Source of the DNA: Myxococcales bacterium
Lineage (GTDB): Bacteria > Myxococcota_A > Polyangia > Fen-1088
DNA: 64,000 bases
Direction: 5' to 3'
NCBI GenBank assembly: GCA_022184915.1
Contig: JAGTJU010000008.1
Location: forward strand, 81,232 to 145,231
Below, piece by piece: positions 443 through 62,853 of the stretch. Within the stretch, counting starts at the first letter, position 1; each line of letters begins with the position of its first letter. The notes beneath the pieces were generated by a model, which was given only the letters and a program-made list of their open reading frames with translations, was not told the DNA's origin and ran no database searches. A program made the translations under genes and the position numbers.

Positions 443-1342
443 GTGACGAAAGCCTCTGCCCCTCCCGCGAAGCGCCTGACTCCCCTCGCACGCCTGCGCG
501 CGATGCTCGCTGAGCCCGGTCTTTTGCTGATGCCCTGTTGCTTCGACGGCCTTTCGGCGCGGCTCATCGAGCTGGCCGGCTTCCGCCTGACGTTCATGAG
601 CGGCTTCGCCGTTTCAGCGGCACGGCTCGGCGCACCCGACACGGGGCTCATCTCGTACGGCGAGATGCTCGATCAAGGGCGCAATGTGTGCAGCGCCGTC
701 GATCTGCCCGTGCTGGGCGATGGCGACACCGGCTATGGCAACGCCGTCAACGTCAAGCGCACGGTGTTCGGCTACGCGCAAGCAGGGTTCGCGGCGGTGA
801 TGCTGGAAGATCAAGTGGCGCCAAAGCGCTGTGGGCACACACAGGGCAAGCAGGTCGTGGGACGCAGTGAGGCGGTGGCCCGCATCCGCGCCGCCACCGA
901 CGCGCGCGACGAAGGCGCGCAGATCGCGATCCTGGCCCGCACCGACGCGCGCGCCACGCATGGACTCGCGGAAGCTCTGTGGCGGGCGCAGGCGTTCGTG
1001 GACGAGGGGGCCGACATCGTCTTCGTCGAAGCGCCCCGTGACGAGCGCGAGATGGAAGAGATCGGGCGCGCCGTCACGGTCCCCTTGCTCGCCAACATGC
1101 TGGAAGACGGTGACACGCCCATCTTGCCGCCCGCCCGCCTCGAAGCGCTGGGGTTCAAGATTGCGGCCTACCCGCTCACCCTCGTCAACAGCGCCGTGGC
1201 CGCCATGCAAAAGGCCCTCACGGCGCTGGCGCGTGGGGAAACGCCCAAAGGTCTCCTGCCCTTCGCCGAGCTCAGGCGTGTGGTGGGCTTCGATGCCTAC
1301 GACGCCGAAGCTCGTCGCTACGCTTCGCGCACGGACGAGTAA
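443..1342 (+). CDS. Isocitrate lyase/PEP mutase family protein
   Basis: Motifs DGDTGYG, LEDQVAPKRCGH, ARTDA and PLLANM are typical of the ICL/PEPM superfamily. Confidence 0.9.
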   Translation: MTKASAPPAKRLTPLARLRAMLAEPGLLLMPCCFDGLSARLIELAGFRLTFMSGFAVSAARLGAPDTGLISYGEMLDQGRNVCSAVDLPVLGDGDTGYGNAVNVKRTVFGYAQAGFAAVMLEDQVAPKRCGHTQGKQVVGRSEAVARIRAATDARDEGAQIAILARTDARATHGLAEALWRAQAFVDEGADIVFVEAPRDEREMEEIGRAVTVPLLANMLEDGDTPILPPARLEALGFKIAAYPLTLVNSAVAAMQKALTALARGETPKGLLPFAELRRVVGFDAYDAEARRYASRTDE

Positions 1343-1394
1343 GCCGCACGACGGCCCCCCCCTTTGCTGCGTTTCCATCGCCACCTCACGCACC

Positions 1395-2645
1395 ATGCTC
1401 GACACCTTGCATTCCGCTTTGGGCCTTGTCTGCTTCACCCTTTTCGCGTGGCTGCTCGGCGAAAACCGCCGGGCGGCCCGTGTGAAAGTGGCCGCGGCGG
1501 GCATGGCCTTACAAATAGGCCTGGCCGCGCTCATCCTCAAGGTGCCGCTCGTGCGCGCGGGCTTTGGCGCGCTGAACGCGGCCGTGTTGGCCGTGCAGAA
1601 CGCCACGGAAGCGGGCACCTCGCTGGTGTTCGGCTACCTGGGAGGAGGGTCGCTTCCCTTTGCGCCACAGCCAGGCGCCTCCCCGTACATCTTCGCGTTC
1701 CGCGCGCTCCCGCTCATCGTCGTCATCAGCGCGCTCACGTCGCTGCTGACGCACTTTCGCATCCTGCCGTTCTTCGTGAGGCAGTTTTCGCGGGTGCTCG
1801 AACGCACGTTGGGCATCGGGGGCGCGGTGGGGCTTGGCACGGCGGCCAACGTCTTCGTGGGCATGGTGGAAGGCCCTCTCTTCGTGCGCCCCTTCCTGGC
1901 AAAGCTCACGCGCTCGGAGCTGTTTGTCCTCATGGTGGCGGGCATGGCCACGATCGCGGGCACCGTGCTGGTGCTTTACGCCCAACTCATCTCGCCCGTG
2001 CTGGCAGACGCTGCGGGTCACCTGCTGACGGCCTCGGTGATCAGCGCGCCCGCCGCCGTGACGATCGCCCTGCTCATGGTGCCTGAGACGGAAGCCACGC
2101 TCACGGGCGGCGCCGCCCCTGCGCCCGAGACCAAGAGCGTGATGGATGCCGTGACGGCGGGGACCACCGCGGGCCTTCAGATTCTCCTCACCGTGACGGC
2201 CATGCTGATCGTGCTGGTGGCGCTCGTGCACCTCGTGAACGCTGGGTTGGGTGTCCTGCCTGCGGTTGCCGGCGCGCCGCTGTCCCTCGAACGGGTGCTG
2301 GGATGGCTCATGGCGCCCGTGACCTGGCTCATGGGCATTCCGTGGCGCGAAGCGCCCGTGGCGGGGGCGCTGATGGGCACGAAGACGGTGCTCAACGAGT
2401 TTCTCGCGTACTTGCAAATGTCGCAGCTGCCTCCCGAGGCGCTCAGCCCGCGCAGCCGGCTCATCATGGCGTATGCGCTATGTGGCTTCGCCAACTTCGG
2501 AAGCCTGGGCATCATGCTCGGGGGGCTGTCGGCCATGGTGCCCGAACGGCGCGCGGAGATCGCGCGGCTCGGCGCCAAGAGCGTGGTGGGCGGAACGCTG
2601 GCCACGTTGTCCACCGGCGCGGTGGTGGGCCTGCTCGGCGGGTGA
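1395..2645 (+). CDS. nupC: Concentrative nucleoside transporter (CNT, NupC/NupG family)
   Basis: Polytopic membrane protein with FAFRALP, NVFVGMVE, MATIAG, KTVLNEF and LCGFANFGS CNT motifs. Start moved to ATG 1395, in frame with ORF 831..2645. Confidence 0.9.
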   Translation: MLDTLHSALGLVCFTLFAWLLGENRRAARVKVAAAGMALQIGLAALILKVPLVRAGFGALNAAVLAVQNATEAGTSLVFGYLGGGSLPFAPQPGASPYIFAFRALPLIVVISALTSLLTHFRILPFFVRQFSRVLERTLGIGGAVGLGTAANVFVGMVEGPLFVRPFLAKLTRSELFVLMVAGMATIAGTVLVLYAQLISPVLADAAGHLLTASVISAPAAVTIALLMVPETEATLTGGAAPAPETKSVMDAVTAGTTAGLQILLTVTAMLIVLVALVHLVNAGLGVLPAVAGAPLSLERVLGWLMAPVTWLMGIPWREAPVAGALMGTKTVLNEFLAYLQMSQLPPEALSPRSRLIMAYALCGFANFGSLGIMLGGLSAMVPERRAEIARLGAKSVVGGTLATLSTGAVVGLLGG

Positions 2646-2652
2646 AGAGCGC

Positions 2653-3234
2653 CTACACGCGCGCCGCGGGATCCAGCCACGCGTCGGGGATGGGGCGCGG
2701 GGCCCCCTCACTCGAAAGACCTAGAGACACCGCCGCCCAGTGGCCCACGTTGTACCAGATATGTGGGCCCGGGCAGTTGGGGCGGCCATGCAGATTGAAC
2801 TGCCTGTGCGCGTAGACGTAGCGAAGCGCATGGCGGCTCCAGAGGTGGCGCACCAGCTGCCGTCCGGCTTCCACTTCGGCCCAGGTGGGCACTCGGGATC
2901 CCGCCGTTCCGTCCGCGATCTCCTCCGACGTGGCCAGTCCCTCGGCGCCGAACGAGGCGAATTCGATGTGAAGGCTGGCCCGCGCGTGCGCGTCGTCCAG
3001 CAGAGCTTCGACGGGCCGCAGCTGCAGCACGGTGCCGTCGCGAAGCACGGCGAAGTGGGCGATCACCGTATCGTATTGATCGGGCCGGTCCCCTCGATCG
3101 AAGCCCATCTGGTGCAGCACCACGGCGTTGATGGCGGTCAAGGGGCGCCGCGTACCGAAGCGGCTCAGGATCGGCATCCCGCGAAGGTTGTTCGCGATGC
3201 CAGCCGTCAGGGAGGTGCGATCGACGATGACCAC
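2653..3234 (-). CDS. N-acetylmuramoyl-L-alanine amidase (Amidase_2/PGRP-like), small
   Basis: VVLHQ, AHFAVLRDG, HIEF, AHRQF and NCPG match the Zn-amidase pattern. GTG start at 3234 inferred within ORF 2653..3945. Confidence 0.75.
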   Translation of the reverse strand: MVIVDRTSLTAGIANNLRGMPILSRFGTRRPLTAINAVVLHQMGFDRGDRPDQYDTVIAHFAVLRDGTVLQLRPVEALLDDAHARASLHIEFASFGAEGLATSEEIADGTAGSRVPTWAEVEAGRQLVRHLWSRHALRYVYAHRQFNLHGRPNCPGPHIWYNVGHWAAVSLGLSSEGAPRPIPDAWLDPAARV

Positions 3235-3390
3235 ACCCCCGTTATAGGCCTGCCTGCGTTCGGACACAACCGGCCCGGCACGCCGCAGGTCACCGCGAGG
3301 TAACGAGCCTCGCGTCCGCCCCAGGCACAAGGCGCCCGATCGCGCTGGAATGTGCTTTGCACACTTCCAAGTCGTGGGGGAGGGACAGCG

Positions 3391-3918
3391 ATGCGCGTGT
3401 GGAAGCAACCTTGGTCTGTGTGGCTCCTGGGGCTCGCGGTGGCGACGACGGCGGCGGTGACGAGGGCGCAAGAGACGACGCCCGGTACGCCCCAGGAGGT
3501 GCGCGACGTGACCGTCGACAACCCGGGCGTGGGCATCGCCCCCGCGCAAGAGCTCGGCAGCCTCGGACGCGGCGACGAGGAACGGGCCCTTGCGCCGGCG
3601 GAGATGGAGACGCAGACCGCCAGCAACGAGCTCTTCGCCGACGAAACCCGCACCCTGTGGCGATGCAGGCACAAGGTCGCCTTCGCGCAGAAGGTGGCGC
3701 CGGCCGCGATTCCGCCGGGGCGCGTGCTGGTCCGCTTCGTGGTGGACACGTCGGGGCAACCGCGGCAGGCCGCCGTGGTGGCGCTCGAGCCGCTCGACAC
3801 GGACGTGTTGTTCTGTGTGAAGGACGAGGTTCAATCGTGGCGCCTCGAACCGCCGCCCGTCAAGCCCGTGACCTTCACACGCGAGGTCGACCTGCGCGCG
3901 CCCAATGAAGATCCCTGA
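3391..3918 (+). CDS. Exported protein with TonB C-terminal/AgmX-PglI-like domain
   Basis: Signal peptide (MRVWKQPWSVWLLGLAVATTAAVTRA). The C-terminus GRVLVRFVVDTSG...CV...SWRLEPP resembles TonB_C-like domains. Confidence 0.6.
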   Translation: MRVWKQPWSVWLLGLAVATTAAVTRAQETTPGTPQEVRDVTVDNPGVGIAPAQELGSLGRGDEERALAPAEMETQTASNELFADETRTLWRCRHKVAFAQKVAPAAIPPGRVLVRFVVDTSGQPRQAAVVALEPLDTDVLFCVKDEVQSWRLEPPPVKPVTFTREVDLRAPNEDP

Positions 3919-4223
3919 CGAACGTCTCTGGCTTCCTGGCTTCATCTGCGAAGCCCTTTCGCGAGGCCTCTCACAACCGCCACAACGCTTTCGTGTGACC
4001 AGCGTCCCCCGTTCTTTCTGATTTAGTCGCCGCCTGACTTTCTGCGAGATCTATCGGTTGGACGGCCGGAGCCAAAGAGACACCTCCAGTGAGTTCTTGC
4101 TAGCTGGGCCACTCATTCCGAACAAAGGCGAGCAAGTGGCCACAGAGTCGGTCCTCTTCTCCAGGCGTCACCAAGGTGAGACTACTGGTTTGTGCGTTTC
4201 GCGCAGATCAGGTAGCGTTCGCC

Positions 4224-5057
4224 ATGGCCGATGTCATGAACTTCTATATCGATGACTCCGGTTCCCGAAGTCCCGACCGCCATCCCAAGGATGCTTTGCC
4301 AGGGCATGGCCATGACTTTTTCGGATTGGGCGGGGTTCTTGTTCGCGAGCGTGATGAAGCGTTCGTGCGCGCGAAGCACGAGGCACTGGTCTCTGAATGG
4401 AAGCTGCATGGCCAGCCTCTCCACTCGTCAGAAATTCGCGCCAGCAAAGGCCCCTTCACATGGCTCCGCGGCGCATCCGCCGAAAGGCGGGAAAAGTTCT
4501 ACACCGATATCGAACAACTAGTGACGACGCGCGAACTTACCGCGCTCGCTTGCGTCGTTGATCGGCCCGGCTACAACCGTCGGTATCGCGACCAGTACGG
4601 AAGAAAACGCTGGCAGCTTTGCAAGACTGCGTTCTATATCGTGGTCGAGCGTGCCGCCAAATACGCGATAGCCAAGGATTGCAAGCTCCGGATCCTCATC
4701 GAGAGCGCTGGCAAACGTGAAGACGGTCAACTCCAGAACTACTATTCGGATATGCGGAACGTGGGTCAGCCTTTCGATCCCACTAGAGCTGCCAAATACG
4801 AGCCACTTCACCCAGCCGCGCTGGCCGCGACGCTGCACGAGTTCCGCAAGAAGAGTAAGTCGTCTCCGTTGATGCAACTTGCCGATCTATGCTTATGGCC
4901 ACTGTGCCTTGGCGGCTACGACTCCGGAAACGTACCCTACGCCGCCTTGAGACGTGCGGGTACACTCCTCGATGCGCAGCTGCGCCCAGAGGACGTCCCA
5001 CATCTGGTCGTTAAATACAGTTGCTTCGAAGCACTCAAAAAAGCTGAAGCTCGCTAG
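4224..5057 (+). CDS. DUF3800-like protein (predicted RNase H-like fold)
   Basis: N-terminal FYIDDSG, central LHSSEIR and ILIES, and C-terminal MQLADL are family hallmarks recognised by eye. Composition is visibly less GC-rich than the flanks. Confidence 0.8.
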   Translation: MADVMNFYIDDSGSRSPDRHPKDALPGHGHDFFGLGGVLVRERDEAFVRAKHEALVSEWKLHGQPLHSSEIRASKGPFTWLRGASAERREKFYTDIEQLVTTRELTALACVVDRPGYNRRYRDQYGRKRWQLCKTAFYIVVERAAKYAIAKDCKLRILIESAGKREDGQLQNYYSDMRNVGQPFDPTRAAKYEPLHPAALAATLHEFRKKSKSSPLMQLADLCLWPLCLGGYDSGNVPYAALRRAGTLLDAQLRPEDVPHLVVKYSCFEALKKAEAR

Positions 5058-5115
5058 AAGCGAGCTTCAGGACGGCTGCCTCACGGCGACCCAGTGGGCG
5101 ATGCCCAATGGCTAT
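5044..5115 (+). ncRNA. Candidate structured RNA immediately 3' of the DUF3800 gene (DUF3800-motif-like)
   Basis: Three consecutive hairpins: perfect 12-bp CTGAAGCTCGCT/AGCGAGCTTCAG (5044-5070, spans the stop codon), GGCTGCC-TCAC-GGCGACC (5074-5091), and CCA-G-TGGGC-GAT-GCCCA-A-TGG (5091-5111). No poly-U tail. Confidence 0.5.
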
Positions 5116-5376
5116 ACTAGTTGCAAACGGCTTGGCTAGTCAACTGGGCGGGCGCCCCTTTTCAGTCCTAAATTTAGCGAGCCCGCTCGGCGGCAAGTGG
5201 CGTTCGTTTCGGAGTCCGCCTATCCGCTCGAGGCTCAGTGCGCAATGGAATCGCTCAGGCGGTCAAAGTCCGTTATTGCCGAGCATCATCCCGCTTCGCA
5301 GAGTTGCGTTCGAGGTACTCTTGCCGCGCTCGTCCAAGTTCCTCACGCCGTGGCCAACCGCATTCGCGCGCCATCG

Positions 5377-5811
5377 CTACTTCGTAGTCACTGAAGAAGT
5401 GTCGAGACACTGGATTTCAGTGAATGCTACCGAAAGGAAATTGAATGTCCCTCGCAACGATTCGTTCAAAGCATCGAAGTTGATGGTCGATAGCAATGTC
5501 GAGAGGTTTTTGGTTGCACCGTCCTAGCTCAAGGCGTAGCGAAAACCGTCGGCGTAGGGGTCGACGTAGTGGATCTCATCGAGGATCGCGCCGAGTCACG
5601 ATGCGGCGCCCGACACGCCTCCTTCCGAAGGCTGTCAACGGCGGCCTCGTATGACCAACGATAGTGGCGCCGAAAAGTGGAACCGCCTGCATCGTGGTAG
5701 CTACCAAAGTCGGCTCCACCGCGGCTTGTGTCGCCACAAAAAACTTGCCGCTTCACGTCGGGCCAGAGAAACGCGCGTTCGTACAACGCTTCTAGGGTCT
5801 TCGTTGTCCAT
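5377..5811 (-). pseudogene. Decayed gene, possibly HEPN-like hypothetical protein
   Basis: Protein-like segments lie in different frames: (..GDTSRGGADF..YRWSYEAAVDSL..) and (ILDEIHYVDPYADGFRYALS*DGATKNLSTLLSTINFDALNESLRGTFNFL), the latter with an in-frame TAG at 5524-5526. Family assignment is from pattern memory only. Confidence 0.35.
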
Positions 5812-6108
5812 TTTCGGCAACTTCGCGTGTCTAGAACATCCGGGCAGGTTACGGCCCGAGACCGGGGAGCTTGCCCGTCCCCCCAACGCCTCAAAATCGC
5901 GTTCTCGCTCGCACGCCCGGAGCGTGTCTGACCCTCGACCAGTCCGTCCAACCCATCTTTTCTGGCTGCACAAGCCCTTCCGCGAATTTTCGATGATCAC
6001 GGCAGACTACGTGGAGACCTCGCCGTGAAGCGAGGGGCGCGCCCCAGGCACCTGCAGCGCAAGAATCGGGTCGAAGCCGCGCACGGGCGGGGATAGGCTG
6101 CTTGGCAC

Positions 6109-7023
6109 ATGACCGCCGATTACCACCGCGTCGAAGCGGCGCTTCGCTATCTCGAAGAACGCTGGCCGGAGCACCCCTCGCTCGACGACGTGGCGAAGCA
6201 CATTGGTCTTTCGCCCTTTCATTTTCAGCGCCTGTTCCACCGGTGGGCAGGCATCACGCCCCATCGCTTCATGCAGCACCTCACGTGGTCGTTCGCGCGG
6301 GCGCGCCTGCAGCAAGATGTGCCCGTGCTGCAGGCGGCCTTTGAGGGCGGGCTTTCGGGCGCGTCGCGGCTGCACGATCTGGCCTTGCGGCTCGAAGCCG
6401 TCACGCCCGGGCAGATGCGTTCGGGCGGCGCCTCTTTGCCGATCCGCTGGGGTGTCCACGAGAGCCCCTTCGGCCGCTGCTTCGTGGCCACCACACCGCG
6501 GGGCCTTTGCCAGCTGGGCTTCGTCTCCGAAGATCCCGGCGGCACTTCTTTCGAAGAGCTGCGCGCGACGCTGGCCCGCACGTTTCCGCAGGCACAGCTC
6601 GCCGAGGACGCGGGAGCCACGGCGCCCCTCGTGGCGCGTGTGTTCCGGGCGCCGCCTCCGCGCGGCCTTGGCGGGGATCGCCCGCTTTTGCCCCTCTTCG
6701 TCTCGGCAAGCCCATTTCAGCTCCAGGTCTGGCGTGCGCTCTTGGCCATCCCCGAGGGCGCGGTCACCACGTACCAGGCGATTGCGCGGGCCATTGGCAA
6801 CCCCGGCGCCACGCGCGCTGTGGGCACGGCCGTGGGGCGCAACCCGATCGCCTGGCTCATCCCCTGCCACCGCGTGATCCGCAGCGAGGGACACACGGGG
6901 CAGTACCGTTGGGGCCCTCTGCGCAAGCGCGCGATGCTGGCATGGGAGGCCGCCCGAACCTCTCCCGAAGAGCCTGCCCGCGGCGCCGCGCCCGAGCGGC
7001 TGGTACGCTCGGCCCCCCCATGA
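6109..7023 (+). CDS. AraC-HTH / methylated-DNA-[protein]-cysteine S-methyltransferase fusion (Ada-like, no N-terminal Zn domain)
   Basis: N-terminal AraC HTH (LSPFHFQRLFHRWAGITP) and C-terminal IPCHRVI active-site motif. Confidence 0.9.
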   Translation: MTADYHRVEAALRYLEERWPEHPSLDDVAKHIGLSPFHFQRLFHRWAGITPHRFMQHLTWSFARARLQQDVPVLQAAFEGGLSGASRLHDLALRLEAVTPGQMRSGGASLPIRWGVHESPFGRCFVATTPRGLCQLGFVSEDPGGTSFEELRATLARTFPQAQLAEDAGATAPLVARVFRAPPPRGLGGDRPLLPLFVSASPFQLQVWRALLAIPEGAVTTYQAIARAIGNPGATRAVGTAVGRNPIAWLIPCHRVIRSEGHTGQYRWGPLRKRAMLAWEAARTSPEEPARGAAPERLVRSAPP

Positions 7024-35174: not shown

Positions 35175-37054
35175 GCGCCACCGCTCATCGTCCGGGGCGC
35201 CCGTCCCGCGCCTGTCGCGCGGCGGCGTTCGTGGCCTCGTTCCTCGTTTTTGGGGCAGGGGCCGGCGGGTTTTCTCCGTGCCGCGCGGCAGACGTCACGC
35301 TCTTCTCCACCCCCCCGCAGCTGGCCGGCGACGACACGGTCGAGTTGGTCGTGGGTGCGCGCCTTTTGGGTATCGAACGCGTCAAGCTCGAAGACCTCCA
35401 GGTGCGCTTCGACAAAAAGCGCGGCAAGGTGCGGGGCAGCCAGCCCTACCTCGACTACGCGGCCGACAAGTCCCGGGGCGCCGAGTCGTGGCGCCCGCCC
35501 CTCACCGTGGGCTTCGTCTACCTGTGGACCGACGGCACCCCGCCCGAGATGGTGGACGGCGTTCACCGGCTCTTCAAACGCCTGCCACCCGAGACCGTGG
35601 TCCTGCCCACGCCCTTCGGGCAGAGCTACTTTCCCGTGGTCAACCCGGCCTCCGCGGCACGCGTGGCGGGGGGCGGCCTCGACGACCAGCCCTTCATCGA
35701 CGGCGACGCCATCACGTTCCTGCAGGCAACGCGAGCCAACGTCCACGAGGTGGCCAAGGACGATGCCCCGCTCAAGGCCCTCGTGATCATCGCCGACGGC
35801 CGCGACTACGGGGCGGGCAGCGACCCAGGCCCCTTTGCCTCCCTGGGCAAAGAGCTGCGTGAGGCGGGCTACGTGACGCAGGTCGTGGGCCTGCCCACCG
35901 ACGACGACACCGCCCGGGCCAACCTGCGGGCTTTAGCGCACGCCGCGGGCGCACGGCTTCTGCCCGCAAGACAAGCGTCCGAGCTGCCCGCCCTCATCGA
36001 GGCCGCGGGCACCTTGTTTTTCGACCTGCGGGTGATGCGCGCCGAGCTTCCCCTGTCCGTGCGGCTCTTCGGCGGCGACGTGACCGTGGCGCTCGAGGCC
36101 ACAGCGGACGGCAAAGAGATCAGCGCCGCCGCAGGCCTCGTCGAGGTGCCCGCCTCCGGCGGCTGGCTGCTGCTCGTGGCGGGCGGCGTGCTGATCCTGG
36201 GCGGAGCCGTGGGCGTGGCCGTGATGGTGGCCAAACGCCGGCCGGGTGGCGGGGCAAGCCCCGAGGACGACATGGACGGCTTCCTCGATGCCGTTCAGGA
36301 GCTGGTTCGCCGGCGGGTGGCCCCCGAGCGCGCGGCCGTGGAGCTGTCGCGCTGGTACCCCGAGCTGGTCGCAGAGCTGCCCAACATCGACGTGGACGCG
36401 CTCGATCCCGGCGACTACCGGCTGCTCAAGAGCCGCGCCGGGCAGGCCCGGCTCCAGGAGTACGCCAAGGCCGTCGGCAACACGGACGAGGACACGGGCA
36501 GCTCCGGTCAGGACGTTGTGGCGCTGATGTCCGGCGCCCTCGCGCAGGGCATGTCCGCTCCCGACACGGCCCGCCAGCTTCGCGCCCGCGTGCCCGATCG
36601 CACCTGGGCGGCGTTCGCCCGGGCGCGCTTCGACGAGGTCACCTCGATGCTGAAGACCGCGGCAGCGTCACAGCCGGCCCTCGCCAGCCCGCGCGCCCGC
36701 GCCTTCGTGCTCGCGGTGCAGGACGCTTTGCGGGATCGCGAAGGCGCCGAGGTGGTGGTCGGCTGGCTCGTCCGCGCGGCAGGCCCTGGCAAGCGCGGTG
36801 AGACGCTGCGCCTCGCCCGCAACCGGACCGTGATCGGGCAGGCGCCCGGCTGTCAGCTTCGTCTGGAAGACAAGCTCATGGCGGGTGAACACCTCGCGAT
36901 CACCGAGGCAGGCGGTGGCTACTCGGTGGCCCCACTTTCCGGGCTCGTGAAGGTCGAGGGCAAAACACTGATGGCCCAGCGGCCCTTGCTCGACGGCGAA
37001 ACGCTCGAGTTCGGCCAGGGGCAGTACGTGTTCAAGGCCGTCGTCGACGGCTAA
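35171..37054 (+). CDS. Membrane protein: exported vWA-like domain, TM helix and cytoplasmic FHA-like domain
   Basis: Signal region, ALVIIADGRD, one TM segment at about two-thirds length, and C-terminal GWLV..LLDGETLEFG. GTGA overlap with the upstream gene. Confidence 0.65.
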   Translation: MSATAHRPGRPSRACRAAAFVASFLVFGAGAGGFSPCRAADVTLFSTPPQLAGDDTVELVVGARLLGIERVKLEDLQVRFDKKRGKVRGSQPYLDYAADKSRGAESWRPPLTVGFVYLWTDGTPPEMVDGVHRLFKRLPPETVVLPTPFGQSYFPVVNPASAARVAGGGLDDQPFIDGDAITFLQATRANVHEVAKDDAPLKALVIIADGRDYGAGSDPGPFASLGKELREAGYVTQVVGLPTDDDTARANLRALAHAAGARLLPARQASELPALIEAAGTLFFDLRVMRAELPLSVRLFGGDVTVALEATADGKEISAAAGLVEVPASGGWLLLVAGGVLILGGAVGVAVMVAKRRPGGGASPEDDMDGFLDAVQELVRRRVAPERAAVELSRWYPELVAELPNIDVDALDPGDYRLLKSRAGQARLQEYAKAVGNTDEDTGSSGQDVVALMSGALAQGMSAPDTARQLRARVPDRTWAAFARARFDEVTSMLKTAAASQPALASPRARAFVLAVQDALRDREGAEVVVGWLVRAAGPGKRGETLRLARNRTVIGQAPGCQLRLEDKLMAGEHLAITEAGGGYSVAPLSGLVKVEGKTLMAQRPLLDGETLEFGQGQYVFKAVVDG

Positions 37055-62384: not shown

Positions 62385-62666
62385 GCCAACCTGTTGTGCT
62401 GATCCGGGAAGAGCACTTGTCTCTTCGCAGATTCATCACGAATCGATTTGCGGTGCCAGAATTCGCGACACGCCGTCTACAATTTCAAGTCGAGACCGAA
62501 GCTCCAAGAAGGAAACCTTCGTCTCGATTCCTCAACGCATTTCTTTATCTCTCTCGAGTCACGCTTTCGCGTCTTCGTTGATATTCAGTTTTCAGAGATC
62601 CGTCTGCAACGTCCATACGAGCAGACTCTCGAAGTGTTCCCACTCATCGTGGGAACGAAACTTTTG

Positions 62667-62739
62667 TGGAGCGTAAGGGAATCGAACCCTTGACCCTCGG
62701 CTTGCAAAGCCGATGCTCTCCCAGCTGAGCTAACGCCCC
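62667..62739 (-). tRNA. tRNA-Ala (TGC)
   Basis: GGGGCGTTAGCTCAGCTGGGAGAGCATCGGCTTTGCAAGCCGAGGGTCAAGGGTTCGATTCCCTTACGCTCCA, with the G3:U70 identity pair. CCA is not encoded. Confidence 0.97.
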
Positions 62740-62778
62740 GAAACAATCCTTGTACGGGGCTCACGAACTCACAAGCAG

Positions 62779-62853
<75 letters not shown>

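Follow-up and report, generated by a model that had tools for sequence, protein, structure and literature searches.

The window analysed here, a stretch of 64,000 nucleotides, carries a compact two-gene module in which a DUF3800 gene on the plus strand is met by a convergent small-RNA (sRNA) gene on the minus strand. The RNA is strictly linked to one subfamily of DUF3800 proteins across phyla. We hold this anatomy and this pairing, taken jointly, with high confidence. The features of the locus are listed in Table 1.

Table 1. Coordinates of the DUF3800/sRNA module and its surroundings in the window
Feature	Position	Strand	Basis
DUF3800-family RNase H-like predicted nuclease gene, 277 aa	4224..5057	+	translation, Pfam, homolog alignment, AF2, Foldseek
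Predicted structured small RNA, whole gene, about 70 nt	5037..5108	-	blastn block, covariance model, fold
sRNA promoter, sigma-70-type	5114..5143	-	promoter scan; conservation across loci
Hairpin H3, 5' hairpin of the sRNA, UGGGC-AUC-GCCCA	5095..5107	-	covariation
Hairpin H2, GGUCGCC-GUGA-GGCAGCC, GNRA loop	5074..5091	-	covariation
Intrinsic terminator of the sRNA, 12-bp stem (5044-5070) and U6 (5042-5037)	5037..5070	-	terminator scan
Module islet, lower GC (low GC from about 3750)	3946..6000		composition; Pfam on flanking genes
Amidase gene, left neighbour of the islet	2653-3945	-	Pfam
Ada/AraC methyltransferase gene, right neighbour of the islet	6109-7023	+	Pfam

The initial annotation had described three hairpins at the 3' end of the DUF3800 gene. 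All three are present: the perfect 12-bp hairpin over the stop codon is an inverted repeat (5044-5055/5059-5070) that includes the TAG at 5055-5057, the second corresponds to H2, and H3 lies inside the interval 5091-5111 that had been given for the third. The strand on which they had been read proved to be wrong. The first hairpin had been thought not to be an ordinary terminator for want of a U-tract, and a T-tract is indeed absent after the stem on the plus strand; however, a run of six A residues (5037-5042) precedes the stem there. On the minus strand, the terminator scan found the 12-bp stem and then CTTTTTTG, which gives a terminator composed of the 12-bp stem followed by CUUUUUUG. Because U6 comes right after the stem on the minus strand, hairpin 1 is a canonical intrinsic terminator; its stem probably also ends the DUF3800 mRNA. 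Rather than a 3' element of the mRNA, the three hairpins make up a separate convergent minus-strand gene with its own promoter and terminator. The promoter has the -35 sequence TTGACT (5143-5138), an 18-nt spacer and the -10 sequence TAGTAT (5119-5114), with a predicted start site at about 5107, and the same arrangement occurs at the related locus L001.

The sRNA is better preserved than its surroundings. Between the window and loci L001 and L002 a 71-nt block covering the sRNA is 94% identical by blastn; the DUF3800 proteins of the window and L001 share 70% identity, and no alignment was obtained for the downstream flank. The terminator stem of L001 differs by a compensatory change from U-A to C-G. 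Fold stability relative to chance was z = -4.5 on the minus strand (-36.6 kcal/mol) and z = -3.1 on the plus strand. In the 64-kb window the covariance model had a sole match, at 5073-5108 on the minus strand (37.2 bits, E = 2e-7), and the next-best score was 16 bits. The copy in the window has some departures of its own: H2 contains one C-A mismatch, and the linker between H3 and H2, which is ACGAG in most copies, is ACUGG, so that the most conserved linker positions read CUG instead of CGA.

Conserved, covarying structure in the 3' flanks of homologous genes was found at all 80 loci, as the initial annotation would have it. To assess covariation, 78 sequences were aligned with MAFFT; 95.4% of cells were paired and 8 of the 11 pairs showed double changes. 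Covariation as strong as this was seen in none of 500 shuffles, slid controls reached only 25-49% pairing, and RNAalifold recovered the same two helices independently. The pairs of H3 were kept in 99.7%, with covariation of the outer pair between G-C and A-U (42 and 34 sequences), and compensatory changes occurred at six of the seven pairs of H2. A U·G pair in H2 is kept in 74 of the 78 sequences, and the closing pair is G·U in 27. Read on the plus strand, these pairs would be C-A and A-C mismatches, which identifies the minus strand as that of the RNA. The H2 loop is likewise a GNRA tetraloop on the minus strand only, being GUGA in the window and GUAA in many copies; at other loci the H2 stem carries extensions of variable length.

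The framing of the RNA is also conserved. Across 77 loci the promoter consists of TTGaca at -35 to -30 and TAtatT at -12 to -7 with fixed spacing, and a pyrimidine-purine step lies immediately upstream of GGC. Of 75 distinct loci, at least 59 have a hairpin followed by a T-tract on the RNA strand. In the 72 loci where the stop codon of the DUF3800 gene was placed relative to the terminator hairpin, it lay inside the hairpin in 25 and 0-30 nt before it in 37, while the reading frame ran on through the RNA gene in 10, which produces spurious "conserved" C-terminal tails in annotation. The RNA is about 66 nt long (range 54-87), and only the terminator stem, the tip of H2 and a short spacer are variable. 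An RNA-guided function, one of those suggested in the initial annotation, is not borne out by an RNA of this length in which no variable, guide-like segment was found.

Each of the 80 homologous DUF3800 genome loci has exactly one covariance-model match, located just 3' of the gene. These loci come from Alpha-, Beta- and Gammaproteobacteria, Myxococcota, a cyanobacterium, Verrucomicrobiota and Chloroflexota. The RNA is convergent with the DUF3800 gene in 78 of them; in the other two (L003 and L004) the element is flipped relative to the gene and lies about 130 nt downstream, co-directional and with its own promoter. When metagenome contigs were retrieved by the RNA pattern alone, five of the seven with enough flanking sequence had a convergent DUF3800 gene 46-77 nt away. 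A Pfam search of 136 flanking ORFs of the homologous loci gave no third conserved protein partner, and reverse transcriptase (RT) domains were not among the families most often matched. Recurrent but scattered neighbours among these ORFs were restriction-modification genes, integrases, IS elements and HTH proteins. On Rhizobium etli plasmid p42a the DUF3800 gene stands beside TIR, caspase-like and E2/JAB genes, and the RNA lies immediately 3' of RHE_RS21150. Besides R. etli CFN42, cultured carriers include Aminobacter carboxidus DSM 1086, Ralstonia chuxiongensis and Prosthecomicrobium hirschii.

The assignment of the protein to DUF3800 was upheld by Pfam: residues 6-227 match PF12686 with 46.7 bits, where the cut-off is 21 (E = 6.9e-12), and each of the 296 homologs retrieved is a member of that family too. 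The acidic motifs YIDDSG, ILIES and QLADL that had been noted in the ORF are present in its translation, and the ATG at its start agrees with the N-termini of homologs in the alignment. An N-terminal acidic motif and a C-terminal QxxD motif are the hallmarks of DUF3800 (PMC7736814), and both were found here, as YIDDSG near the N-terminus and as QLADL (Q218 to D221). In an alignment of 31 homologs D10, E142, E160, Q218 and D221 are invariant, and D11 and D113 are each at least 90% conserved; D10, E142, E160 and D221 are candidate catalytic carboxylates. The AF2 model of the 277-aa protein had a pLDDT of 91.2 and a pTM of 0.90. Its top Foldseek match in the PDB was RNase H2A (3puf, E = 5e-4, probability 1.0), with RNase HII (1eke) and RNase HI among further matches, in keeping with the RNase H-like fold first proposed, although the TM scores against PDB RNase H structures were low (0.3-0.4). 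A model of a viral DUF3800 protein compared with the AF2 model at TM 0.75-0.85. The protein is thus a predicted nuclease with a modelled RNase H2-like fold and the full conserved acidic set. We found no PDB structure of any DUF3800 protein and, in the DUF3800 literature consulted, no enzymatic assay of one. No model in PADLOC or NCBIfam matched the DUF3800 protein or the other ORFs of the islet.

The module lies in a lower-GC islet, as had been noted: GC is 0.55-0.60 inside and 0.67-0.73 in the flanks. About 0.9 kb of the islet (5160-6000) contains no recognisable gene, and ORFs within 5108-6028 had no Pfam or NCBIfam matches. The neighbours of the module in the window are housekeeping genes; no obvious defence island was seen, and no RT domain was found among the window neighbours tested. 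In a search for ends of a mobile element, no terminal inverted repeats were found, and the only candidate was a 14-nt direct repeat (13 of 14 identical) near the islet edges, at 3951-3964 and 5972-5985. It could be a chance match; by our own estimate about 0.6 such repeats are expected per 2.8 kb. The only tandem repeat between 3600 and 6400 was an unrelated 8-mer, repeated twice.

Eleven structured RNAs, DUF3800-I to DUF3800-XI, were found near DUF3800 genes by comparative genomics; they occur on either side of the gene and in either orientation, several end in intrinsic terminators, and their structures are unlike one another (PMC5737381). The present RNA likewise is a conserved structured RNA adjoining DUF3800 genes, but its architecture of two short hairpins and a terminator is different, it accompanies one DUF3800 subfamily, and it also occurs alone in phages. 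The initial annotation had pointed to the Rfam models of these motifs; none matched at E <= 10 in the window or in locus L016, and at gathering score the DUF3800 models had zero matches in 19 + 12 loci. The best score, 13 bits, came from DUF3800-IX, whose cut-off is 36.8. Nor did any family of Rfam 15 fit the window, 40 related loci or the phage loci, at gathering score or at E <= 10. A sub-threshold match to rnk_pseudo (32 bits against a cut-off of 55) was rejected, only the terminator being aligned. An integron attC site, a dispersed repeat and a ribozyme were set aside on sequence alone, given the single copy, the promoter and terminator framing and the strand asymmetry of the G·U pairs; Rfam gave no ribozyme match. 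The sRNA adds a twelfth to the DUF3800-associated RNAs. It is set apart from the others by way of Rfam 15, in which DUF3800-I and -IX were confirmed, and may equal a motif of the 2017 set that lies outside Rfam. The literature consulted that mentions DUF3800 contained no description of this RNA and no function for the protein.

Public transcript data were consulted for R. etli and for metatranscriptomes. No discrete small transcript was demonstrable in the available RNA-seq, which consists of assembled contigs that carry no strand information. Metatranscriptome contigs covered only parts of the DUF3800 coding region, whereas R. etli contigs span the locus. One R. etli run shows a sharp fall in depth at L051:3870, within the linker and away from the predicted start site, which could reflect RNA processing or an mRNA 3' end. 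Depth is raised across the last ~330 nt of the DUF3800 gene, also in one run. A single low-depth contig ends in A-rich sequence at L051:3810, a position just beyond the U-tract if the contig is read on the minus strand. The papers on R. etli non-coding RNAs that were consulted contained nothing on p42a.

Copies of the RNA core were also found in phages. Thirty-five viral contigs, 27 of them distinct, scored at least 30 bits. No DUF3800 gene was detected near the phage copies by tblastn, by a subfamily HMM on 176 neighbouring ORFs, by Pfam on 20 or by hhalign on 3, and a tblastn search of GenBank phages for DUF3800 was negative. Seven phage copies lie within 300 nt of a tRNA gene on the same strand. 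The cultured Mesorhizobium phage Cp1R7A-A1 has the core inside a tRNA cluster, 1.9 kb from a GOLLD RNA. Among 33 copies that lack DUF3800 (27 viral contigs, the cultured phage and five orphan metagenome copies), 99.3% of positions were paired and the U·G pair was present in 31 of 31; one phage copy has the H3 stem GAGC/GCUC. Some phage copies have an outer closing stem, as expected of an excised RNA, some lie near terminase genes, and one has a neighbour with an RNA-repair HAD domain. The phage copies resemble the non-coding RNAs of phage tRNA arrays, such as GOLLD, in having phage tRNA genes of the same strand around them. They differ from GOLLD, ROOL and other Rfam families in having a tiny 36-nt two-hairpin core with no sequence or structure match to them.

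An antitoxin-like or anti-phage role of the module may reasonably be inferred. The mechanism we favour, which is plausible though we would not call it probable, is that the sRNA binds and restrains the DUF3800 nuclease and that the phage copies act as decoys. The sRNA would be a specific ligand of the nuclease and would most likely keep it inactive, as an antitoxin-like gatekeeper. Were its supply halted or the RNA altered, for example by phage infection, the nuclease would be released. The orphan RNA cores of phages, several of them co-transcribed with phage tRNAs, could then keep the nuclease silent. A parallel is offered by retrons, in which the products of the RT and ncRNA are thought to restrain effector proteins, the type VII effector being a DUF3800 protein. 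In favour of the mechanism are the strict linkage, the orphan phage copies and the defence-related genes beside some homologous loci; against it stand the housekeeping surroundings of the window locus, the want of a PADLOC model for the protein and the departures of the window copy from the consensus. The wider proposal, of a minimal and widespread immune or addiction module in which an RNA of ~66 nt with two hairpins gates DUF3800 and phages counter with mimic RNAs from their tRNA arrays, is more speculative.

Several known systems share parts of this arrangement. Type VII retrons comprise an RT, an ncRNA and a DUF3800 effector (PMC7736814), and DUF3800 proteins also accompany Cas12a2/a3 and type VI-F loci as accessories (PMC10910872, PMC12669027). 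Like the window locus, type VII retrons have a DUF3800 RNase H2-like protein, in which the acidic motifs follow the same pattern, and a structured ncRNA encoded in cis, and they have a presumed defence role in which a nucleic acid controls the effector, as is proposed here. By contrast, here no RT was found among the neighbours tested in the window or among the families matched most often around the homologous loci, the RNA falls far short of an msr-msd in size, and the Q of QxxD (Q218) is kept, whereas the retron-linked proteins are without it (PMC7736814). Type I toxin-antitoxin (TA) pairs such as txpA/RatA and bsrG/SR4 are likewise convergent, with 3' ends overlapping at a shared terminator. 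However, their toxin is a small hydrophobic peptide and the window protein a predicted 277-aa soluble enzyme; moreover, the conserved part of the present RNA lies outside the overlap, and overlap is absent in 37 of the 72 loci. In type III TA systems (ToxIN, AbiQ/antiQ) a nuclease is restrained by a small structured RNA encoded adjacently, and phages evade them with an RNA copy of their own (pseudo-ToxI mimicry). The type III-like reading suggested in the initial annotation does not hold as such: the RNA is a single-copy unit free of repeats, and toxin fold and gene order are different. Type III loci have the order RNA, terminator and toxin on one strand, and the genes of the window converge; their toxin is a ToxN/Kid-like endoribonuclease of the ToxN/AbiQ type, and the window protein is RNase H-like.

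Other explanations account for part of the same observations. The sRNA might be a required cofactor, scaffold or activator, the active effector being a ribonucleoprotein and the phage copies triggers, competitors or hijacked parts. This is rather doubtful, yet it would give the same strict linkage of gene and RNA and the same conserved, protein-sized core, and it suits both the eleven unrelated RNA motifs that accompany DUF3800 genes (PMC5737381) and the presence of DUF3800 in RNA-guided CRISPR loci and in retrons (PMC10910872, PMC7736814). It fits less well with an RNA that varies in its terminator and short spacer and has no variable target-specifying segment, and a phage-borne activator of a host nuclease, expressed alongside phage tRNAs, is harder to explain. 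The phage copies can equally be read as the original home of an RNA whose function is unrelated to DUF3800. Such an RNA could act in translation, tRNA biology or phage development, with DUF3800 as its processing or turnover enzyme or as a co-travelling neighbour that shares its terminator. In favour of this are some 30 phage contigs that carry the core but no DUF3800 gene, with copies inside tRNA arrays and close to terminase genes, and also the outer closing stem, the RNA-repair HAD neighbour and the R. etli depth boundary in the linker, if that marks a processing site. We nevertheless consider it unlikely, since hitch-hiking is hard to square with linkage at 80 of 80 loci in at least five phyla and in unrelated neighbourhoods, since the RNA retains its own promoter even when its orientation is flipped, and since no tie to a known tRNA or ribosomal element emerged, the sub-threshold, terminator-driven rnk_pseudo match being all that Rfam gave.

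Three further readings were weighed. Under cis control by convergent transcription, transcripts from the strong RNA promoter would enter the nuclease gene from its 3' end, and terminator read-through or overlap of the 3' ends would lower expression in a type I-like manner; convergence in 78 of 80 loci, a stop codon within or beside the shared hairpin and the raised depth at the end of the gene in one R. etli run are what one would expect. This is quite unlikely all the same, as it leaves the deeply conserved, covarying H3/H2 core outside the overlap unexplained. The two co-directional loci with the RNA about 130 nt downstream, the 37 loci where RNA and ORF do not overlap and a toxin that is not a small membrane peptide also stand against it, and pairing of the sRNA with the 5' UTR of the nuclease mRNA was no better for cognate than for non-cognate pairs (p = 0.6). 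The original view of the three hairpins, as a cis element other than a terminator in the plus-strand 3' UTR of the DUF3800 mRNA, is very improbable. The plus strand does fold well (z = -3.1), the mRNA necessarily runs through hairpin 1 at least, and the boundary at L051:3870 fits an mRNA 3' end just after H2. Against this, the conserved U·G (74 of 78) and G·U (27) pairs are mismatches on that strand, the GNRA tetraloop of H2, the upstream promoter and the downstream U-tract all belong to the minus strand, L003 and L004 have the element turned round with respect to the gene, and stand-alone copies occur in phages. It is scarcely credible that the locus holds nothing more than an ordinary terminator with chance hairpins, or a DNA element such as a recombination site or miniature repeat. 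Hairpin 1 is indeed an ordinary terminator and the direct repeat lies near the islet edges, but conservation and covariation of the core extend across phyla, the element is single-copy in the window and so not a dispersed repeat, and strand-asymmetric G·U pairs together with promoter and terminator framing indicate RNA rather than DNA.

The predicted nucleases of the large DUF3800 family occur in retrons, in RNA-targeting CRISPR loci and beside eleven enigmatic RNA motifs. The RNA described here has an unusually clear anatomy, with a promoter, two covarying hairpins and a terminator, and its presence alone in phages, sometimes among tRNAs, is a new clue to the DUF3800-associated RNAs. The relation between DUF3800 and its RNA is now open to simple experiments, in R. 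etli CFN42 with p42a and in Mesorhizobium loti with phage Cp1R7A-A1. If the sRNA does gate the nuclease, the module would amount to a "retron without reverse transcriptase". The DUF3800 family would then have its first function, and the association of its genes with a dozen or more unrelated RNA motifs would be explained.

The plus-strand ORF (Table) encodes a member of the DUF3800 family. The initial annotation had proposed a DUF3800-like RNase H fold from three acidic motifs; all three are present in the translated ORF, and Pfam gave a DUF3800 match of 46.7 bits against a cut-off of 21. No PADLOC or NCBIfam model matched the protein. Homology searches found 296 relatives, the closest non-self relative being 70% identical and all others at most 59%. 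Across 31 aligned relatives, D10, E142, E160, Q218 and D221 were invariant and D11 and D113 nearly so; the conserved residues match what has been described for retron-linked DUF3800 proteins, namely a D/E...QxxD pattern and the 'DEED' variant of the RNase H carboxylates (PMC7736814). The AlphaFold2 model was confident (pLDDT 91.2, pTM 0.90). Its best PDB matches, each at a low TM score, were human RNase H2A (E = 5e-4, probability 1.0), archaeal RNase HII and RNase HI. The PDB search found no solved DUF3800 structure; in a viral structure library the protein matched a DUF3800 model at TM 0.75-0.85.

The same annotation had paired this ORF with an RNA of three hairpins that lacked a U-tract. The pairing held, as did the perfect 12-bp hairpin across the TAG and the two further hairpins, but the strand and the terminator had been misassigned. 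A run of six A residues directly precedes the stem on the plus strand, so that on the minus strand the stem is followed by CUUUUUUG; a terminator scan reported the hairpin and CUUUUUUG as a minus-strand site. At the same offset as the window promoter, L001, one of two contigs (L001 and L002) encoding the 70%-identical relative, has TTGACT-17-TACTCT. In the contig alignment, the 71-nt block at 5037-5107 was 94% identical to L001/L002, while the proteins are just 70% identical and the downstream flank did not align. The big stem of this block shows a compensatory U-A to C-G change in the closest relative, where the window TAG is GAG and the annotated protein reads on across the RNA element. A covariance model (R1) of the 36-nt RNA core found one match in the window (37.2 bits, E = 2e-7), the next best reaching 16 bits.

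Table. Features of the DUF3800-RNA module and its surroundings in the window.
Feature	Position	Strand	Remarks
DUF3800 ORF	4224-5057	+	277 aa by translation; YIDDSG, ILIES, QLADL
Stop codon TAG	5055-5057	+	enclosed by terminator stem
Small-RNA promoter	5143-5114	-	good sigma-70-type, TTGACT-18-TAGTAT
Core model match	5073-5108	-	
Hairpin H3	5095-5107	-	
Hairpin H2	5074-5091	-	
Terminator stem	5044-5055/5059-5070	-	inverted repeat
A6 run	5037-5042	+	
Direct repeat	3951-3964/5972-5985		14 nt, 13/14 identical
Weak ORF	5529-5951	-	140 aa
Weak ORF	5273-5410	-	45 aa
tRNA-Ala(UGC), tRNA-Ile(GAU)	62666-62852	-	rRNA operon spacer at window end

Comparison of the regions 3' of 80 homologous DUF3800 genes in other genomes showed a common layout in virtually all, on the strand opposite to the DUF3800 gene. 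The -35 and -10 hexamers and about 7 nt lead to (R)GGC-NUR-GCC and ACGAG; next comes a hairpin of 6-7 bp, capped by either a short loop or a longer extension, and after a short spacer the element closes with a GC-rich hairpin and its U-tract. Position counts in 77 loci placed TTGaca at -35 to -30 and TAtatT at -12 to -7, with a 17-nt spacer, and found a pyrimidine-purine step directly before the first G of GGC, which is the likely start site of the RNA. A hairpin and T-tract on the RNA strand were detected in at least 59 of 75 loci, an undercount, since imperfect stems escaped the simple finder. The RNA has a predicted length of about 66 nt (range 54-87). In 25 loci the terminator hairpin encloses the nuclease stop codon, and in 37 it begins 0-30 nt after it; given this varying position, the TAG within the window hairpin merely reflects how tightly the two convergent genes are packed and is not a signal. 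ORFs without a stop (10 of 72 loci; for example L001 126-1064, protein P0002) run on into the RNA gene; their C-terminal tails (for example ...KRASGRLPHGDPVGD, or QSP/KSP motifs from AAAGCCC) seem conserved but are the RNA gene translated. Two Kofleriaceae genomes carry the RNA gene in inverted orientation, about 130 nt downstream of the nuclease and co-directional with it; retention of its own promoter and terminator there shows the predicted RNA gene to be an independent transcription unit.

The H2 and H3 helices were 95.4% paired in a MAFFT alignment of 78 distinct sequences, with both-sided changes in 8 of 11 pairs (112 cells). None of 500 shuffles matched the observed covariation, slid registers paired only 25-49%, and RNAalifold, unaided, returned the same two helices. 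In 74 of the 78 sequences one pair is U·G, and 27 have G·U as the closing pair; on the DUF3800 gene's strand these become C-A and A-C mismatches, so the functional RNA strand is the opposite one. GNRA tetraloops are common in H2 when it is read on this opposite strand: many copies have GUAA, and the window has GUGA.

Metatranscriptome contigs covered parts of the DUF3800 coding region only. RNA-seq contigs of Rhizobium etli span the whole locus, but are strandless, so that boundaries in them are leads, not evidence. In one run (X15), the gene body had a depth of about 316, which rose to 760-4200 across the final ~330 nt before falling sharply to 155 at position 3870 of the R. etli locus L051, inside the ACGAG/AUC linker; this could be an RNA processing site or an mRNA 3' end. 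A low-depth contig from another run (X14) has a single A-rich tail at L051:3810, a position that on a minus-strand reading falls just past the U-tract; this tail may be a polyadenylated 3' end.

The covariance model gave exactly one match in each of the 80 loci, always directly 3' of the gene; as the model was built from these loci, the scores are by construction, but uniqueness and position are not. In the reverse search, the RNA pattern alone gave 11 strong matches in metagenome contigs, and a convergent DUF3800 gene lay 46-77 nt away in five of the seven that extend 1 kb or more on the appropriate side. Among 136 flanking ORFs there was no other conserved protein partner; the commonest families were N6 methylases and MmeI/Eco57I-type restriction-modification enzymes (4-5; the MmeI/Eco57I-type methylase domains each in four ORFs), with phage integrases (4), IS1595 transposases (3), HTH proteins and otherwise unrelated housekeeping genes. 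On R. etli CFN42 plasmid p42a (NC_007762.1; L083 257-5570), the DUF3800 gene is immediately preceded by a defence-type run (DUF2604, metal-binding, Mov34/JAB, E2-fold, TIR-domain and caspase-family proteins) and followed by an IS21 element. Four Rhodobacteraceae loci (L014, L022, L024, L026; ~70-2970) have a ~960-aa ORF ending 29 nt before the DUF3800 start, which, from the family counts over all flanking ORFs, we infer to be a restriction-modification enzyme. Near-identity of the Rhodobacteraceae module in several genera suggests recent horizontal transfer. Genes for tRNAs lie ~0.25-2 kb from several modules (L016, L043, L034, L012, L072, and L080 with an apparent tRNA 3' fragment at ~3960-4000), consistent with insertion at tRNA-linked hot spots. 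Steroidobacter agaridevorans has an sRNA-Xcc1 family RNA (63 bits; L040 1605-1692) 1.3 kb upstream of its DUF3800 gene.

The window module does sit in a lower-GC islet, as first described: ~3750-6000 has 55-60% GC versus 67-73% in the flanks, among ordinary chromosomal genes (nucleoside transporter, amidase, Ada-like methyltransferase, EamA transporter). The direct repeat near both islet edges (AAGCCCTTTCGCGA/AAGCCCTTCCGCGA) could be what remains of an att site, or a target-site duplication, but by our own estimate ~0.6 such 14-nt repeats are expected by chance in the stretch. The ~0.9 kb of islet downstream of the RNA promoter (5160-6000) holds only weak ORFs, with no Pfam or NCBIfam match. 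On an R. leguminosarum plasmid, the module is likewise followed by ~1 kb without annotation (L254 4814-5813).

The RNAs DUF3800-I to -XI, described near DUF3800 genes, are dissimilar to one another, lie in either orientation, include several with terminators and have no known function (Weinberg et al. 2017, PMC5737381). Rfam 15, which includes at least DUF3800-I and -IX, gave no family match to the element; the sole sub-threshold one, rnk_pseudo, aligns with the terminator alone. By this comparison with Rfam, we treat the RNA as a new, twelfth DUF3800-associated motif. It belongs to a known, unexplained class, and its anatomy is unusually clean.

Orphan copies of the core occur in phages. The same 21-nt RNA pattern as in the metagenome search was found in 51 IMG/VR contigs, and 35 reached at least 30 bits with the covariance model; the remaining matches look like chance hits inside GC-rich ORFs. 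No DUF3800 gene was found beside phage copies in the contig DNA examined (tblastn, Pfam, hhalign), and 176 nearby ORFs searched with an HMM gave none either. The genes around these copies encode, among others, terminase large subunits, an integrase, an HNH endonuclease, a TnpB and a protein with an RNA-repair-type HAD domain; this domain, of the 'Swiss Army Knife' RNA-repair proteins (E = 2e-24), is in an ORF of viral contig L104 (895-1731) ~0.4 kb from the orphan RNA. Across 33 aligned DUF3800-less copies the helices were 99.3% paired; two H2 pairs covary, and U·G is kept in 31 of 31. A same-strand tRNA gene lies within 300 nt of seven phage copies; four copies lie 13-20 nt after tRNA-Met, and a second tRNA follows in three of these. 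In some tRNA-adjoining copies an outer stem closes both hairpins, which is what an RNA excised from a tRNA precursor should look like. The cultured Mesorhizobium phage Cp1R7A-A1 (MT188704.1, ~36350-36383) has an unannotated copy inside a tRNA cluster, with its own TTGACA promoter and the H3 stem changed to GAGC/GCUC. A GOLLD RNA (193.5 bits; L253 4856-5318) with an embedded tRNA-Leu lies 1.9 kb away in this cluster.

The comparisons establish the anatomy and strand of the RNA, its covarying helices and its linkage to the gene; we infer that it is a specific ligand of the DUF3800 nuclease. The initial annotation had also suggested an RNA-guided module; a guide model is weak, as the RNA has no variable guide-like segment, and so is simple antisense control, since no cognate complementarity to the nuclease 5' UTR was found and the conserved core is not part of the stretch that overlaps the mRNA. 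Control in cis through convergent transcription seems very unlikely, and it is quite unlikely that the RNA has a function of its own and is processed by DUF3800. That the RNA serves the nuclease as cofactor or activator is conceivable, if rather unlikely.

The reading that we favour, tentatively, is that the small RNA would act as an antitoxin-like gatekeeper of the nuclease and the orphan phage copies as decoys. It draws on the parallel with type VII retrons, in which a DUF3800 effector likewise accompanies a cis-encoded nucleic acid, on the presence of defence-type genes nearby in some genomes, and most of all on the orphan copies themselves. The link between a DUF3800-associated RNA and phages is new.
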